A stretch of 64,000 bases of DNA from a virus. Shown piece by piece: positions 2,985 to 45,900 of this stretch. Position 1 is the stretch's first letter. Each line of letters starts with the position of its first letter. The stretch covers positions 1 to 64,000 of IMG/VR virus record IMGVR_UViG_3300033141_005269; one strand, given 5' to 3'. The position numbers were made by a program, and so were the translations under genes. Below the pieces are notes generated by a model. It was not told where the DNA came from. It saw only the letters and a program-made list of their open reading frames with translations, and ran no database searches.

Positions 2985-3158
2985 ATGGAAAATCTAGAAG
3001 TTGCAGAAAATCTGAGGTTTCTGAAGCTTACTTTTACATGTCCTGAGAACCTAATCGAGGGGTTAGATAAACTCTGTAAAGCTAAAGGGTACCATCGAAG
3101 CGAAGCGATAAGAAGTGCGATAAGAGATAAACTCGATCGCGAAAGAATCAAGTATTGA
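2985..3158 (+). CDS. Ribbon-helix-helix (CopG-like) regulator, 57 aa, below the ORF-track cutoff
   Basis: Manual translation MENLEVAENLRFLKLTFTCPENLIEGLDKLCKAKGYHRSEAIRSAIRD; GAGGTG SD. Confidence 0.8.
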   Translation: MENLEVAENLRFLKLTFTCPENLIEGLDKLCKAKGYHRSEAIRSAIRDKLDRERIKY

Positions 3159-3252
3159 GGGAACAGACCCTTCTCGAGAACTACAACTTCCTTTATTTTT
3201 TACTCGAAATGTTTAAATAATTGTATGTCTTAAAGTTATATCGGTGAAACAA

Positions 3253-3402
3253 ATGCCAACACGGGTTGTTCATGAGAAGAAAGTAATTTTTAGAATGTCC
3301 GTTGACCTATTAGATAAGCTTGATCGTTACTGTGAAGCTTATGGTTATACTCGAAGCGAAGCAATACGGAAAGCTATCAGATCATTGGTCGGTATAAAAT
3401 GA
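3253..3402 (+). CDS. Ribbon-helix-helix regulator, 49 aa
   Basis: Manual translation includes [33 protein letters not shown]. Confidence 0.8.
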
Positions 3403-3671
3403 TCTTGTCATATGAAGATGAGATCGCGAATGAGCTTGGAATAACGGAAGAAACCTTTGTTGGGACTATTGAAGTTATTGGCAGGCGTTTGAATATCTGT
3501 CCTTATGTAATTGACCTTAGGAACTTACGGAAGATTATTCGAAAGGCTAGTAAACTCGGATATCAAGTTGCTTTACCGCGAGCTGTTTTGAGTAACTCGA
3601 AAGTCTTAAGAATTAAAGGCTTTTATAAAACAGAGAATTTTTGGGTATTGGAACCTCAAGAGAAAAGATGA
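3399..3671 (+). CDS. Hypothetical protein
   Basis: ATGA overlap with the upstream RHH gene. Confidence 0.5.
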
Positions 3672-3964
3672 GGATAACGCTCCTTTATTTTTCTATATTC
3701 CTCAACTTCATCGAGAAGACGATTTATTAACTCGTTCCACTTTTCGCCGAAGAATCCGAAGCGTTGAAGACGAATTTTTGTTCCTGTTCGAATCGAGATA
3801 GTTGTAATTTTCCAGTCTGGAAACTCGATATCTAAACTCGGGTTTCGTTCGTGTTCGAGTCTATGACAGCGAGAACAAAGCGGAATGAATTGCTCCGGAG
3901 AATGAGCTATCCAGTGAACTTCAATATTTTTGCGAGAACCGCAATTGCGACAAACTCGATCCAA
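3656..3964 (-). CDS. HNH-like Zn domain with a C-terminal DNA-binding-like domain
   Basis: CRNCG..EVH..LCSRCH; TTISIR...LINRLLD. Confidence 0.6.
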   Translation of the reverse strand: MDRVCRNCGSRKNIEVHWIAHSPEQFIPLCSRCHRLEHERNPSLDIEFPDWKITTISIRTGTKIRLQRFGFFGEKWNELINRLLDEVEEYRKIKERYPHLFS

Positions 3965-4077
3965 GCCTAACCCATGTGAAAATAAGTATTGTTTAATTAA
4001 TAAAAATTGCTATTTGCAGAAACTTTATAAAGTAAGTTTACAAGAACTTCGAATGAATAAATTAGAGGTGGAAATGA

Positions 4078-4869
4078 ATGAGTGTAGCGAAAAGAGCCTG
4101 GTTACCAGAAGAAATTCAGTTATTGAAGTCAGAGTATGCCACTAACTCGCTTGATGAACTCTGTAAAGTAATAGGTCGTCATAGCCGAAGAGCGATACGA
4201 CAAAAAGCTTATACACTAAACTTAAGAAAACATCCTTGGAAATACGAAGTGAATCATAACTTTTTTGAAGAATGGAATGAAGAGATGGCTTATATCTTAG
4301 GCTTTTTCTGCGCCGATGGTTGTCTGAAAGATAGAAACAGGATTAATTTTTCGAATTGCGAATATGAAATAATTCGTCTTATAAAATTGGCTTTACAAGC
4401 TGAAAATCCGATTTATGAATTCAATCGAGAAAATAGAAAAACACTTTATGTTTTGGAATTTACTTCTAAGAAAATTAAAGAAAAACTCGAAGAGATTGGA
4501 TTGACTGAAAAGAAATCCTCTACTCTCAAATTTCCAAAAGTTCCAATTGATTATTTGAAAGATTTTATTCGTGGATTTTTTGATGGCGATGGGGGACTTC
4601 ACATTTCGAAACGAAACAATCAACTAATTATTTACTTTGCTTCTGGCTCGGAAGCGTTTATAAAGAGCTTGGAAAAGAAATTACGTTGCAAACTCAAATT
4701 GAGAGAAAAGAAAATAAACTTTCGAGGAGGAGTTTATAGATTGAGGTATTATTCAAACGAAGCGAAAACAATTCTATCTTGGTTATATGAAGGCGCTTCA
4801 TTATTCATGAAATCGAAATACGAAAAGTTTATGGTCCTATCGGACATAAGAAGAAACAAAGGAGGTTAA
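4078..4869 (+). CDS. Free-standing two-motif LAGLIDADG homing endonuclease
   Basis: YILGFFCADG and FIRGFFDGDG motifs. Confidence 0.9.
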   Translation: MSVAKRAWLPEEIQLLKSEYATNSLDELCKVIGRHSRRAIRQKAYTLNLRKHPWKYEVNHNFFEEWNEEMAYILGFFCADGCLKDRNRINFSNCEYEIIRLIKLALQAENPIYEFNRENRKTLYVLEFTSKKIKEKLEEIGLTEKKSSTLKFPKVPIDYLKDFIRGFFDGDGGLHISKRNNQLIIYFASGSEAFIKSLEKKLRCKLKLREKKINFRGGVYRLRYYSNEAKTILSWLYEGASLFMKSKYEKFMVLSDIRRNKGG

Positions 4870-4904
4870 AAAATGGGAGAGTTGAAAAGTGAGGTGACCT
4901 TCCC

Positions 4905-5304
4905 ATGAGTGTTGCCAAATGAGCTTTGAGGAAACCTCAAGCTCTGGTTAAGAGCTTGGGAAGGCCATATCAAGAAAGACGGATCGGAAATCGGTTTCGC
5001 GGAAGGAAGTATAACTATAGATCGTGGACTGCAAACGTTTTATGAACTCGGAAATTATGATCTGGCGGCTAGACGAGAAACAGCTCGCGAAATAACAGGA
5101 ACAATTGATCATGGGTTTATAGATCCCACGCTGTTTGGTACTTTAGCTACGGGAAATAACATGACAACTTTCCAAATCGAAATGAGTACTGCTGACGGGC
5201 GCTTTACCCTGAGCGGATGTACAATCGAAAGCTACGACTTCGATATTCCAACTGATGGTTGGATAACTGAAAGCATAGATTTCAGAGCTAAGGGATTTGG
5301 ATGA
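4905..5304 (+). CDS. Tail tube-like protein 1, spliced join(4905..4919,4951..5304), 122 aa
   Basis: GAGGTG SD before ATG 4905. Spliced product is MSVAK|RAWEGHIKKDG. Its C-terminus FTLSGCTIESYDFDIPTDGWITESIDFRAKG parallels the next gene (FKFSGCYIESLDQDNAADDWSTFSVDLRALG). Confidence 0.8.
4920..4950 (+). other. 31-nt BHB intron in the tail tube gene
   Basis: GCCA/UGGU central helix, bulges AAU and UAA, intron hairpin GAGCUU(U)GAGG-AAA-CCUCAAGCUC. Removal deletes an in-frame TGA and fixes the frame. Confidence 0.85.
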
Positions 5305-5315
5305 GGTGATTAGAA

Positions 5316-5726
5316 ATGAGCGTGCAGACTGGAAAAGATGTAGAGGTTTATTATCATAATGGAGCTTTCGCTGATTTGTTTGCGTCTGGAACACTGATTG
5401 GATTAGCTGAAACTGCGACTTGGAGCATGGATGAAGGACTCGAAGAATATCATGGCGCTGGTAAGCGATTACCATGGGGTATTGCACCTGGTCCAAAAAG
5501 TGTAACCTTAACACTCGAAGGATTATGGGTTGAGAGCGGAGCACAGAAATTTTTCATGGACGAAATAGTGAAAAGCGGAGCAACAAATCAATTCCATGTT
5601 GGAATAAGTGGTTTAGATCGCGCCTTTAAGTTCAGTGGTTGTTATATCGAGAGCTTGGATCAAGACAATGCAGCAGATGATTGGTCAACTTTCAGTGTGG
5701 ACTTACGTGCACTTGGGATAAGCTAG
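5316..5726 (+). CDS. Tail tube-like protein 2
   Basis: Beta-rich, 136 aa, immediately before the chaperone and tape measure genes. Confidence 0.7.
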   Translation: MSVQTGKDVEVYYHNGAFADLFASGTLIGLAETATWSMDEGLEEYHGAGKRLPWGIAPGPKSVTLTLEGLWVESGAQKFFMDEIVKSGATNQFHVGISGLDRAFKFSGCYIESLDQDNAADDWSTFSVDLRALGIS

Positions 5727-21458: not shown

Positions 21459-22313
21459 TTAAGTATTACTATCTAGAGATTTCGATGGTTTTAACAAAGA
21501 AATTGGAGTTTCAAGGTAAATTCGATACATGTTTCGCGGAACTGCAAAGTTATGCTCCCTAGCCTCGATAGTTAAATGCTTCGCGACAACTGGCATGGCT
21601 ATTCGTTTATTGTCCCAATTATCCTCGCCAACTTCATCAAAAGCGTGCTGTAGAGCGCGAATTATGCGATCGTGAGGCATTTCTGGGAGCTGAACTTTCG
21701 GTGGCTTCTTAACTTTGGGGAGTTTTGGTAAATCAACTTTTTCTTTGAAGAAGACCTGATTTTTATAATCCTTTCCGACTACTCCTTCCCGTCTGTGTCG
21801 TCTGCACCACTTAAGCGCTTGTTCAATATGCTCGAAAAGATCATCTGTGGAAGCGGGAATAAATCTGTCTACAACTCGAACAATCGGTAAGCGATGATGA
21901 AAGGCTTTTTGATAAATGATATTATATCCAAGAAAACGTTCTGTTTGACAGTCCCAAATATCGAATAATATCCAATGAATATGTTTGCGCTTGGGCTCGA
22001 TCCTGGTAGGCGAAATGCGCTTAAGTAACTCGCCGAATAGGATGTAATCGTTACCATAAATTTGCTCGTCGCGAAGAAGCTCAACTGCTTTCGAAAATTC
22101 AGGAGTTGATTTAAGGCGAGTTTGGATATCATTTGATGCTTGTTCTAGATTGCGGCTTGAGATCCTAACTACTCCGGAGTCATCAAGCCAGATTGAAACG
22201 TTTTCGCCGTCTCGTTTTTCAGTTAGATGAAGAAGCTGACCAATTAATTCGCGACCTTGATTTCGCAAACGGCGAATCGGTTCCAAATCATAATATTTTC
22301 TCCATCGAGTCAT
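21459..22313 (-). CDS. ATP-dependent RNA ligase family protein
   Basis: TEKRDGEN motif I, LFGE, LFDI, EGVV, FKEK. Confidence 0.8.
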   Translation of the reverse strand: MTRWRKYYDLEPIRRLRNQGRELIGQLLHLTEKRDGENVSIWLDDSGVVRISSRNLEQASNDIQTRLKSTPEFSKAVELLRDEQIYGNDYILFGELLKRISPTRIEPKRKHIHWILFDIWDCQTERFLGYNIIYQKAFHHRLPIVRVVDRFIPASTDDLFEHIEQALKWCRRHRREGVVGKDYKNQVFFKEKVDLPKLPKVKKPPKVQLPEMPHDRIIRALQHAFDEVGEDNWDNKRIAMPVVAKHLTIEAREHNFAVPRNMYRIYLETPISLLKPSKSLDSNT

Positions 22314-42972: not shown

Positions 42973-45900
42973 TTAAGCTGCAATCGCATCTTTTAATCCA
43001 ATCGCTATTTTGCTGAGTGTTTTGCGATAATGAGGTTGGTGGAGTATCAACTGTTGAAGAAGTTTTATTAATTTCTGTCTTTTCATCGAAGTGCAAGTTA
43101 TGACCAGAAATTCAGTTCGCATGGAAGACATTACATCGATGAGCGGAAAAGCTTTCTTCATATCCTTCGCTTTGCTGAGCCAACTCGCGAGCATAATCGC
43201 ACTCATGTATTGAGCATCGAACGCCAAGTTACGAAAGCTTTCTGGTTTCTTGATTAATTCGTTTATGTTGACTTGAGTTTTCATGAACGCTTGAAATTTG
43301 GCTCCAACTTCTTGCCCAACATATCCTTTTATATCATCTGGTGAATCAAAGCCTTCTTTCAATTCGAGAGCGAGCCAAGACCATGTTATGCCGGAAGCTT
43401 ATAACTTCTCTCGGCACGGGATATGGGTCAAGTGTCTCGCGTCTTCTCGGTGGCATCATTAGATAATTTTCGTCCTGAAATGCTATTTCCCGGCTATAAA
43501 TGGTTTTCCCTTCTTTTTTGGCATTCATTCAAAAGTTTGAGAGCAACACCCTTTTTGATTTTAAGAAATGGAATTATCGACTCAAGAAAAATTATAATAT
43601 CGGTCATACGTTGAATTCGCCAGTTCCAACAAATGCCATATTTTCCATGTTTAGAACCATAAATGAATCCGCCGACCTTATCTTTCAGCCAAAGCATGAT
43701 TTCCTTATTTTTATTTGCAATTCCTAAATGGTGTTGATAGCCCTTTATTTTGTCGAAATGACAATAACCTTCTCCATCAAAAAGACCAGCAATATAGAGG
43801 AGATCATCTTTGGGCGGAATTTTGATTGTTTGTTCGAATAGTTTCGGTTTTCTAGTCTTTAGTCCAATACTTTCCAAATATTCAGAAATTATCTTTCGAT
43901 CGCGATGAAGAAATTTAGTAATTTGTCTTATCGTGAATCCTTTTGAATATAGTTTTCTAGCTTGCTCTTTTTCGGCATCTGAGAATTTTTTTCTTCGCCT
44001 TTTAATTTGATCCTCAAACTTCTTTAATACGCGAATTACAGTTGTAACCGCGCAACCAGATCTTTTAGCGATTTCCTCTAACGAAAGACCCTTTCTATAA
44101 AGTCTAAGGATCGATTGATTACGCCTCGAAATTTCTGATCTTTTCTCTTTGGAAAGTTTCGGACTTCTTCTCATTTCATTTGGTAGAGTTTTCAAAATTC
44201 GCGAAAGAGTAGAATGACCGATACCATATTTAGAAAGAATCTTTTTCCATTTAATTCCATTGATGTAATCGGAAACTATTGCTTTTCGGGTGTCCTCAGA
44301 TAACTTCATTATTGCCACAATAATAAAAGAGGGAAAACTCACTTATAAACCTGTAGGAAAGCATATGTTCGCTTGTCCCAAGCATCGCCATATTTCTCAT
44401 CCATCCACTTCCGCCAGTCATCTCAGCGGTTATAAGGAAAAGCCCACATATTCTTCTATTTCATTTATGACCATGGAAACTTTATCGCGTTTAATAACCA
44501 GATAAGGAAGAATTAGCTTCAAGATTTTGCCTACTTCAAGAAGAGGGTATTTCGCCCAAGCATAAACATTCTTTTTGGAGGTATATCCCGCTATTTGCTT
44601 GCCCTTTGGATCGGAAATTGTTATTCCGCCACCAAATCTACTTACTAGCCAAGACATGATATCTTTTGATGTATTATAAACAGAGAGTCTGACTTCTAAA
44701 GTTTCTTTTTTCCAACGTTTCCGTCGTTGAGTTACTAACGAACCCTCGCCATCGAATAAACCTGCAAAGTAAATTAAATCTTTTTCTGGAATATTATTCC
44801 TCATCACTGGATGTTTGAATCGATGGCGGGTTATTCCATGCTTTTCAAGAATATATAAAATCGTAGTGTTCGAGACTCCAAGTTGACGCGCAACCTCTTT
44901 GGCATTATGGCAAGCTAAATAAAGGCGAATTACTTCCTCTTCATTAAGTTTAGATTTAAATTTTTTCGCTCGGAGTTTCCATGACATCTATTTCAACCAT
45001 AAGAAAGTAGTGGGCGGTAACTTATAACCTTTACTGTTGGTGGTTGGATGCGAATGATTTTAAATCGCGAGGCTAACGGGGCAGAAATTAAATGTGCAAT
45101 GCTGGAATGTTCAGGGGCATTGCCCGCTGCGATAACCATAGTTCCAGAACTGAATTGAACAAAGCCCGCTAGATGGTCAAGAATTACTGGATAGCTAGCA
45201 GCTTCGACATCGGGCCTATTAATTTGTGTGAATTCGTCCGCGAATAGTATTCCAGAAGTGCATGAATGCAACACAGCCCAAGCGATTCGCCGGAAGGCTA
45301 AACCTCAGCCAAATTTTCTATTATAATACTCGACTAGGATAGGATACTTTTCTTCAAGAAATCTTATTACTTTTTCCGCTTGCTTTCGCTTTACGATTAG
45401 ATATGGCAAAACCGATTTTAGAATGATGTAAGCCTTGAACCGATCATAAGTTTGCCAATGATAAACTATTTCTTGATGGAAAGAATAAGGCTTTGAGGCG
45501 TAATAATTAGATCCAAATTTCTTCTTCAGCCATTCAGCTAACTCTTTCGAGGTATTTGCAACTCGCACGCCTATTCGCCTTTGATAATCCCGTCCCTTCC
45601 ATTTATCGAATTTGATATTGCCATCAGCATCAAGCATACCCGCAAAATAAATTAAGGAATCTTTGTCTGGTAACTCGAAATTTTTAATAAACGGTCTTCT
45701 CGTCTTCGGCTTAATCAAGCCAAGTCTAATTGCTGTCATCCTTACACAAGCGGAAGAACATCCTATAATCTCTGCAATTTGTTTATAAGTTAAATTCGAA
45801 GTAATTAAGAACTCCTTGATTTTGTTTACTTTGAACTTATCTAGTCGGTTCATAATAGGAAATATAGCCTCATGGGATTTAAACCCTCCTGTGGCTCGTA

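Follow-up and report, generated by a model that had tools for sequence, protein, structure and literature searches.

A LAGLIDADG nuclease gene fused in frame to a duplicated tail-tube gene start beside a candidate bulge-helix-bulge mini-intron in a probably archaeal tailed virus

Introduction

How can a virus produce a tail-tube protein whose reading frame runs into a stop codon after only five codons, and why does the nuclease gene directly upstream open with the same eight residues? These questions are raised by a locus in the window analysed here, a stretch of 64,000 nucleotides comprising the first 64 kb of IMG/VR virus record IMGVR_UViG_3300033141_005269, which itself spans 77,415 bp with direct terminal repeats and probably represents an uncultured tailed virus of archaea. 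At the head of the tail module, a free-standing double-motif LAGLIDADG homing-endonuclease gene encoding 263 amino acids (positions 4078-4869, + strand) is followed by a tail-tube gene that appears to lie in two pieces. Exon 1 encodes MSVAK with a TGA directly after it (4905-4919, +), exon 2 holds 117 codons and a stop (4951-5304, +), and between them lies a candidate mini-intron of 31 nt (4920-4950, +), assigned to the bulge-helix-bulge (BHB) type by its fold, by the BHB cut rule and by comparison with relatives. We propose that the endonuclease gene was inserted in frame at the start of the tube gene together with a replacement start that is itself split by the mini-intron, that the tube-gene start would be the target of the nuclease, and that the two elements would spread by collaborative homing; we regard this explanation as evenly poised between being right and being wrong.

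Results

The start of the tube gene is present twice. Copy 1 (4078-4101, +) holds codons 1-8 without interruption and is fused in frame to the nuclease, and copy 2 begins with the ATG at 4905, runs through S-V-A-K to 4919, meets the TGA at 4920 and resumes as R-A-W-E-G-H at 4951, after 31 nt (4920-4950), the first 9 nt of exon 2 completing the copy. Direct reading confirmed the original prediction that both genes open with MSVAKRAW and differ only synonymously: the 24-nt copies differ at three of 24 nucleotides (4086 A/T, 4089 G/C and 4098 C/T), and a repeat search of the window lists them as a pair. The chance of seven identical non-methionine residues is ~1e-9. The three differing sites fall at the third positions of one Val codon and two Ala codons. 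The segment has no other four-fold degenerate sites, and a random placing of three differences among 21 sites hits exactly these in 1 of 1,330 ways. As the differences are confined to four-fold sites, although the leaders of nuclease homologues vary freely, the nuclease leader looks constrained at the peptide level, possibly as a homology arm, through a constraint on translation initiation, or by divergence while both copies served as tube starts in two strains. The heptamer CTGGTTA also occurs both at 4098-4104 (nuclease codons 8-9) and at 4944-4950, the end of the intron (chance ~0.01).

The product of exon 2 matches the Pfam family Phage_tube_2 with 35.6 bits against a cut-off of 27, a match that covers only the C-terminal 107 positions of the profile (160-266 of 266), and a database search places it in a class of 58-83% identity with 22 protein relatives, the family being 122-128 amino acids long in the protein alignment. 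At the DNA level the relatives comprise four independent loci (L001/L002, L005, L006 and L012); two IMG/VR profile scans gave no further loci, and a third, with a profile of the tube paralogue, added only L012. A comparison with relatives lacking the nuclease had been suggested along with the original prediction, and in all four loci the tube gene is in one piece, in the same synteny and directly after a small divergent gene, with both the nuclease and the 31-nt insert absent. Its start there reads MSVAKRTWEGH, MSVAKRFWEGT or MSVAKRHWEGH, and in L006 MSARRGWEGH. A start of the MSVAKRxWEG type is found in 21 of the 22 protein homologues, and M1, A4, R6, W8, E9 and G10 are each at least 90% conserved in the tube alignment. 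Judging from these alignments, MSVAKRxWEG is the native tube start.

Since the relatives carry this start uninterrupted, without nuclease or intron, the AAA|AGA junction predicted for copy 2 is independently supported. The proposal that the duplicate would itself support the junction is likewise borne out, an internal duplicate being a rare sequence-only check on a predicted splice junction, and the one-piece MSVAKR(T/F/H/A)WEGH of the relatives provides the stronger evidence. One tube homologue, P0074, is called without its first 12 residues, the other 21 being complete, and it may represent another interrupted allele. The relatives also indicate where the duplication arose. Ser2 is encoded by AGT in both window copies and by TCA or TCT in the four relatives, and residue 7 is Ala in both copies, T, F or H in three of the four DNA-level relatives and Gly at the aligned position in L006; Ala7 is also found in the closest protein relatives, P0071 and P0077. 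The common AGT at Ser2 and the common Ala7 make the two copies each other's closest kin, and hence, to judge by these codons, the duplication is one that arose within this lineage.

Ordinary translation cannot yield the tube protein, because the frame opened at 4905 ends at the TGA at 4920, and the exon-2 frame is closed by a stop at 4927-4929 and offers neither ATG nor GTG nor TTG before 5161. Gene callers miss the tube gene entirely. After splicing, the tube product is predicted to begin with the peptide (M)SVAKRAWEGHIK.

The 31-nt element and its flanks form a 4-bp helix with two 3-nt bulges on opposite strands and flanking helices, as expected of a BHB, and their joined product would be functional. 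The central helix pairs 4914-4917 with 4945-4948 (GCCA/UGGU), the bulges are 4918-4920 (AAU) and 4949-4951 (UAA), a 10-bp inner stem is formed by 4921-4931 and 4935-4944, and an 8-bp outer helix is formed by the 5' arm CCTTCCCA (4898-4905, +) and 4957-4964 (TGGGAAGG, the conserved W-E-G codons), arms that were also found by an inverted-repeat search. The minimum free energy (MFE) fold of 4895-4975 has -32.4 kcal/mol (z = -4.65), with none of 200 shuffles as stable, and the same fold was obtained in the cofold. Cutting of a BHB after the second bulge nucleotide follows from tRNA 37/38 geometry. Applied here, this rule places the cuts at 4919|4920 and 4950|4951, and the join restores MSVAK|RAWEGH, the N-terminus of 21 of the 22 homologues. 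The arm CCTTCCCA sits between a second Shine-Dalgarno-like sequence and the ATG, has no counterpart upstream of the ATG in the relatives, and belongs to the inserted block. Together these features point to a BHB-type intron that would be removed by splicing. The element has no open reading frame (ORF) and lies 9 nt from the fusion point, inside a 24-nt duplicated segment of a 77-kb genome; no second copy was found within the window, and an IMG/VR scan found the intron nowhere else.

An alternative 10-bp hairpin (4936-4945 with 4951-4960, about -18 kcal/mol) pairs the 3' half of the intron with the beginning of exon 2, so that the 3' splice site would be hidden, and the 5' end of the intron repeats xGAGCTT of exon 2 in the same register. 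The resulting series of forward, inverted and forward copies of the insertion site suggests a fold-back or template-switch origin, or else a switch in the RNA by which the 3' splice site is masked. With a 3' half that copies the presumed target in inverted form and a 5' end that repeats the exon-2 start, the intron may be a local product of a fold-back or template-switch event that duplicated the target of the nuclease.

It had also been suggested that a weaker BHB (helix GCGA/UGGU, with a G-G mismatch) might also splice position 4092 to 4951 in frame. The pairing of 4092|4093 to 4950|4951 amounts to -6.9 kcal/mol, compared with -18.1 kcal/mol for the competing 3' hairpin and -20.0 kcal/mol for the mini-intron BHB, and is not seen in the cofold, so that this suggestion was not upheld. 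A targeted scan of 4020-4110 against 4840-4965 gave no better BHB enclosing the nuclease ORF, and by these results together a large BHB intron containing the nuclease was rejected. The ORF ends 51 nt before the intron, unlike that of an I-type nuclease, which lies within the intron that it mobilises. When copy 1 was given the three letters of copy 2 in a what-if calculation, the core of the large BHB became perfect and its inner helix reached 8 bp (-11.2 kcal/mol); one pair is lost with each of the three differences. As nearly every position of the segment would be paired anyway, this is weak evidence, and it would fit either descent from a nuclease-bearing intron or selection against cleavage of the nuclease message.

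The nuclease matches Pfam LAGLIDADG_3 (E 1e-13) in two stretches, with D80/G81 and D169-G172 invariant across 14 homologues. An AlphaFold2 model (predicted local distance difference test score 88.4) shows coil at residues 1-9, a three-helix helix-turn-helix at 10-46 and the nuclease core at 60-263, and Foldseek matches it with probability 1.0 to the TliVMA intein nuclease, I-Tsp061I, I-AniI, I-DmoI and I-SceI. The two motifs with their acidic residues and the repeated alpha-beta-beta-alpha-beta-beta-alpha fold are those of the monomeric double-motif LAGLIDADG class. With both catalytic Asp residues (D80 and D171) present and the monomeric fold predicted, the nuclease looks active and probably is. 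It shows a presence/absence polymorphism, being absent from L001/L002, L005, L006 and L012.

The homologues of the nuclease are distant (at most 38% identity), and the possibility that they carry MSVAKRA whatever their context was checked: none of them starts in this way. Several begin with Met and 3-6 unrelated residues, followed by W-T-x-E-E-x-x-F/L-L-K-x-N/E-Y, and the window nuclease reads W-L-P-E-E-I-Q-L-L-K-S-E-Y from residue 8. Trp8 is thus common to both proteins because a Trp is conserved at the opening of the N-terminal helix-turn-helix in the nuclease family, and as this Trp is the family's own, the tube-derived part comprises residues 1-7, joined at the common TGG. Of the eight residues that the original prediction noted in both genes, only the first seven are therefore demonstrably borrowed. 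The N-terminal 61 residues of the nuclease received no Pfam name. An identical nuclease protein is recorded on 4 contigs; in IMG/VR scans neither the nuclease protein nor the fused start, as a degenerate DNA pattern, was found.

Signals upstream of the two genes fit a takeover of the tube gene's expression by the nuclease. In L001, L005, L012 and L006 the tube ATG is preceded, at a distance of 27-32 nt, by a block GAAAnnTTTAWWA, and a promoter-like element of the window (G-AAAC-TTTATAAA-G; 4019-4032, +) aligns with this conserved block, 46 nt before the nuclease ATG. No comparable promoter block is found in 4870-4904, between the nuclease stop and the second start. With the conserved block upstream of the nuclease and none before 4905, the nuclease appears as the first cistron and the tube gene as the second behind the old tube promoter, and 4019-4032 would represent that promoter, now driving the nuclease and tube genes. 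A Shine-Dalgarno-like GAGGTG (4065-4070, +) stands 7 nt before the nuclease ATG, a second (4891-4896, +) serves the regenerated tube start 8 nt before the ATG at 4905, and GAGGTG also precedes the next gene (5316).

The gene order at the locus begins with two glycosyltransferase-like genes and the divergent small gene, continues with the nuclease ORF and a pair of paralogous short tail-tube genes, and ends with a chaperone-like and a tape-measure gene. In this virus group the tube proteins, at 122-142 amino acids, are very short and come as two adjacent paralogues (4951-5304 and 5316-5726 in the window), both of which are kept in all relatives. The divergent small gene (3656-3964, - strand) encodes an HNH-like Cys/His module fused to a DUF7557-like tail; its relatives, also on the - strand, lie at about 440-830 in L005, 2094-2486 in L012 and 3738-3908 in L001. 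The fusion is present in the window, L005 and L012, and L001 and L006 encode only a short DUF7557-like protein, making this gene a second, polymorphic nuclease-like module beside the tube gene. Three small ORFs at 2985-3671 (+), between the glycosyltransferase and the divergent gene, are absent from L001, and two of the three are CopG/ribbon-helix-helix-like.

Elsewhere in the genome, a putative split AAA+ ATPase has a first boundary pair (45853-45895 with 45270-45310, - strand) that obeys the same cut rule, with AGCC/GGCG as its helix (one mismatch) and ACA and AAU as its bulges; within it lies a single-motif LAGLIDADG ORF that has its own ATG, and the three exon-sized pieces of the putative ATPase show only a weak P-loop match in Pfam. 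A naive genome-wide scan for BHB patterns gave 1,606 matches on the + strand alone and was dropped as far too permissive. The window also encodes an RNA-ligase family protein of 284 amino acids (21459-22313, -; Pfam RNA_ligase, E 1e-14) that, by its family assignment, could join or circularise BHB cleavage products. The G+C content of the window is ~40%, ARAGORN found no tRNA genes in it, GTDB genomes contained no relative of the tube gene and so gave no clue to a host, and there was no match among GenBank phages. An assembly artefact was judged unlikely, since the two copies of the start differ in their upstream sequence and at 3 sites; the terminal repeats of the record and the identical nuclease protein on several contigs also weigh against it. 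A search of sequencing runs listed no RNA run containing the region, and in two DNA sequencing runs, matching contigs were only 36-151 nt long and spanned no junction.

Discussion

To account for this arrangement, we suggest that a homing-endonuclease gene integrated in frame at the extreme 5' end of the tail-tube gene. The nuclease would use the tube promoter, ribosome-binding region, start codon and first seven codons, joined at a Trp codon that both proteins need, and the insertion would bring a replacement ribosome-binding site and codons 1-8, from which the tube protein could still be made on the same transcript. With the replacement copy split after codon 5, the host tRNA-splicing endonuclease would have to excise the 31-nt intron, and either host RtcB or the virus's own RNA ligase would have to rejoin the exons to give MSVAK|RAWEGH. 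All novelty relative to the ancestral state can be described as one contiguous block, consisting of the nuclease body, its stop, a spacer, the second ribosome-binding site, the second set of first codons and the intron. The sequence around codons 4-12 is left nowhere intact in the genome, since copy 1 departs from it beyond codon 8 and the intron divides copy 2 between codons 5 and 6. Should this stretch, conserved and uninterrupted in the relatives, be the target of the nuclease, fusion and intron together would render the carrier immune, and a naive relative, once cut, would be repaired by copying in both nuclease and intron, a course that amounts to collaborative homing. An invasion of the gene start by the nuclease, with capture of its translation signals, was proposed in the original prediction and agrees with the promoter block upstream of the nuclease and with the relatives without nuclease and intron. 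The further claim made there, that one copy is protected by recoding, is not needed, copy 1 being wholly unlike the tube sequence after TGG.

Several observations weigh against this explanation. The cleavage sites of free-standing phage nucleases are often hundreds of bases away from the nuclease gene (PMC2988022). Since 24 nt of target-like sequence survive in copy 1, and 16 of the first 17 nt in the intron allele, immunity depends on where the key contacts of the enzyme lie. In the MFE fold the UAA 3' bulge is placed in a 3x5 internal loop followed by 3+8 bp, unless weak U-G and U-A pairs form. The arrangement is seen in one genome only, IMG/VR yielding no second fused start or intron, and the proposal assumes an archaeal splicing endonuclease in the host. 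More ambitiously, the nuclease gene and the 31-nt BHB intron might make up a single composite mobile element of archaeal viruses that spreads by collaborative homing, in which the nuclease would cut naive tube starts, repair would copy both elements, and the intron would immunise its carrier, since a host tRNA-splicing enzyme could remove it; we hold this view tentatively, with the chances against it.

The nuclease and the 31-nt element could instead be two unrelated insertions, the one an illegitimate landing of a nuclease with a cut site elsewhere and the other one of many scattered BHB introns, their adjacency being meaningless. Another BHB-type boundary pair in the genome was confirmed by eye, and free-standing nucleases commonly cut away from their own gene (PMC2988022), but the placement of an intron in the 24-nt duplicate, 9 nt from the fusion, has a chance of roughly 0.3% given about ten introns in 77 kb, nuclease and intron are absent together from all four DNA-level relatives, and the outer BHB helix uses 4898-4905, part of the inserted block; we consider independent insertion unlikely. 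Quite improbable is a history in which 4093-4950 (858 nt) was once a single nuclease-bearing BHB intron at AAA|AGA, its ORF fused in frame to exon 1 much as in 'core creep', and in which the 5' splice-site region and ribosome-binding site were later duplicated beside the 3' splice site, leaving the last 31 nt to be removed and the nuclease exonic. A single contiguous insertion placed at just the BHB cut positions would account for the whole difference from the relatives, although insertion registers 15 to 24 are all equally contiguous. Such a history would suit the perfect GCCA/UGGU core and 8-bp inner helix (-11.2 kcal/mol) that copy 1 gains with the letters of copy 2, each of the three copy differences removing one pair of the large BHB, as well as the LAGLIDADG ORF elsewhere in the genome that putative BHB boundaries enclose, and intron ORFs fused in frame to upstream exons are known (PMC10448965). 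However, the other intron nucleases of the genome are of the single-motif type with their own starts, the IMG/VR scans for the fused start and the intron gave no intermediate form, and as an origin scenario it cannot be read from today's sequence alone.

Two further alternatives concern how the locus is expressed today. Alternative 5' splice sites (4919|4920 or 4092|4093) might both be joined to 4951, the large splice giving a monocistronic tube mRNA without the nuclease ORF. Both joins encode the same tube protein, the GCGA/UGGU pairing exists with a single G-G mismatch, and another putative intron of the genome tolerates a mismatch in its 4-bp helix; yet the pairing of -6.9 kcal/mol competes with -18.1 (3' hairpin) and -20.0 (mini-intron) and is not in the cofold MFE structure, it is weakened by all three copy differences, it lacks an outer-helix pair beside the 3' bulge, and the targeted scan gave no better BHB enclosing the ORF, all of which makes this option very improbable. 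Finally, there may be no splicing, the tube copy being a pseudogene broken by a 31-nt palindrome or being decoded by bypass or frameshift, with the paralogue at 5316-5726 supplying the tube function. That paralogue directly follows the tube gene, and the hairpin after the stop codon is reminiscent of the take-off site of T4 gene 60. However, exon 2 has 117 open codons and is as conserved as its homologues, both paralogues are kept in all relatives, and the insertion fits the BHB cut rule to the nucleotide. A +1 frameshift is ruled out by the stop at 4927, and a bypass of the T4 gene 60 type by the lack of an AAA/AAG (Lys) landing codon in the right register, and we regard the absence of splicing as hardly probable at all.

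In a literature search, which was incomplete, BHB introns in protein-coding genes were found only for cellular cbf5 (PMC2738675), and no BHB introns were found in viruses or paired with free-standing nucleases. If our proposal of an in-frame nuclease insertion with a split replacement start is true, this would be the first protein-spliced (BHB) intron that cooperates with a free-standing homing nuclease, and the first such case in a virus structural gene, extending collaborative homing from bacterial group I introns to archaeal tRNA-type splicing. It would also mean that a nuclease without an intron or intein can settle in an essential gene by taking the start of that gene and bringing a spare, and that production of a virion protein depends on host tRNA-splicing enzymes. 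With a length of about 900 bp, the locus lends itself to direct assays of splicing and of the specificity of cleavage.

Elements of this arrangement have counterparts in known systems. In the nrdA/mobE locus of Aeromonas phage Aeh1, a nuclease insertion splits the gene into separately translated pieces. In 'core creep', nuclease ORFs of introns have become joined in frame with the exon upstream (PMC10448965). As in these cases, the nuclease described here appears to gain the expression signals of its host gene, which would stay functional via new downstream translation signals; in contrast to them, the displaced segment (ribosome-binding site and 8 codons) is regenerated as a duplicate carrying an intron. 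The BHB introns of archaeal rRNA genes with LAGLIDADG nucleases (I-DmoI and I-Tsp061I; PDB 2vs8 and 2dch) resemble our locus in their splicing motif, in the fold class of the nuclease and, presumably, in an archaeal host domain, but in those systems an intron of a non-coding RNA gene contains the nuclease ORF, whereas here the ORF lies outside the intron, in a viral protein-coding operon, and is read from the start codon of its host gene. Similarly, the BHB intron in cbf5 pre-mRNA of Crenarchaeota is a tRNA-type intron in a protein-coding message that must be removed for the reading frame, although cbf5 is a cellular gene without an associated nuclease and the present element falls in a viral structural gene, 15 nt after the start codon (PMC2738675).

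The closest parallels in mobility come from bacteriophages. The nrdB intron of T4 is mobilised in trans by the free-standing HNH nuclease MobE (PMC2790892), and here too an intron lacking a working nuclease could be set in motion by the free-standing nuclease next to it, although the T4 system is bacterial, with a group I intron, and its cleavage site lies apart from the nuclease gene, with no coding sequence in common (PMC2790892). In cyanophage S-PM2, the free-standing nuclease F-CphI lies beside an intron-containing psbA gene, an arrangement described as collaborative homing (Zeng, Bonocora & Shub 2009; PMC6083498; PMC2988022). Both loci have a free-standing nuclease gene adjoining a gene whose intron carries no nuclease ORF, both have relatives with intronless, nuclease-less alleles, and in both the intron would interrupt the presumed target; in our locus 36 nt separate the nuclease stop at 4869 from the tube start at 4905, and no ORF lies in the intron. 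In contrast to the psbA system, the present intron would be a protein-spliced BHB element of 31 nt rather than a self-splicing group I intron, the nuclease is LAGLIDADG rather than Endo VII-like, with a cleavage specificity that we infer, and only here is the nuclease fused in frame to a duplicate of the first codons of its target gene. The arrangement appears to combine three known kinds of element, namely homing-endonuclease insertion, a BHB intron and collaborative homing.

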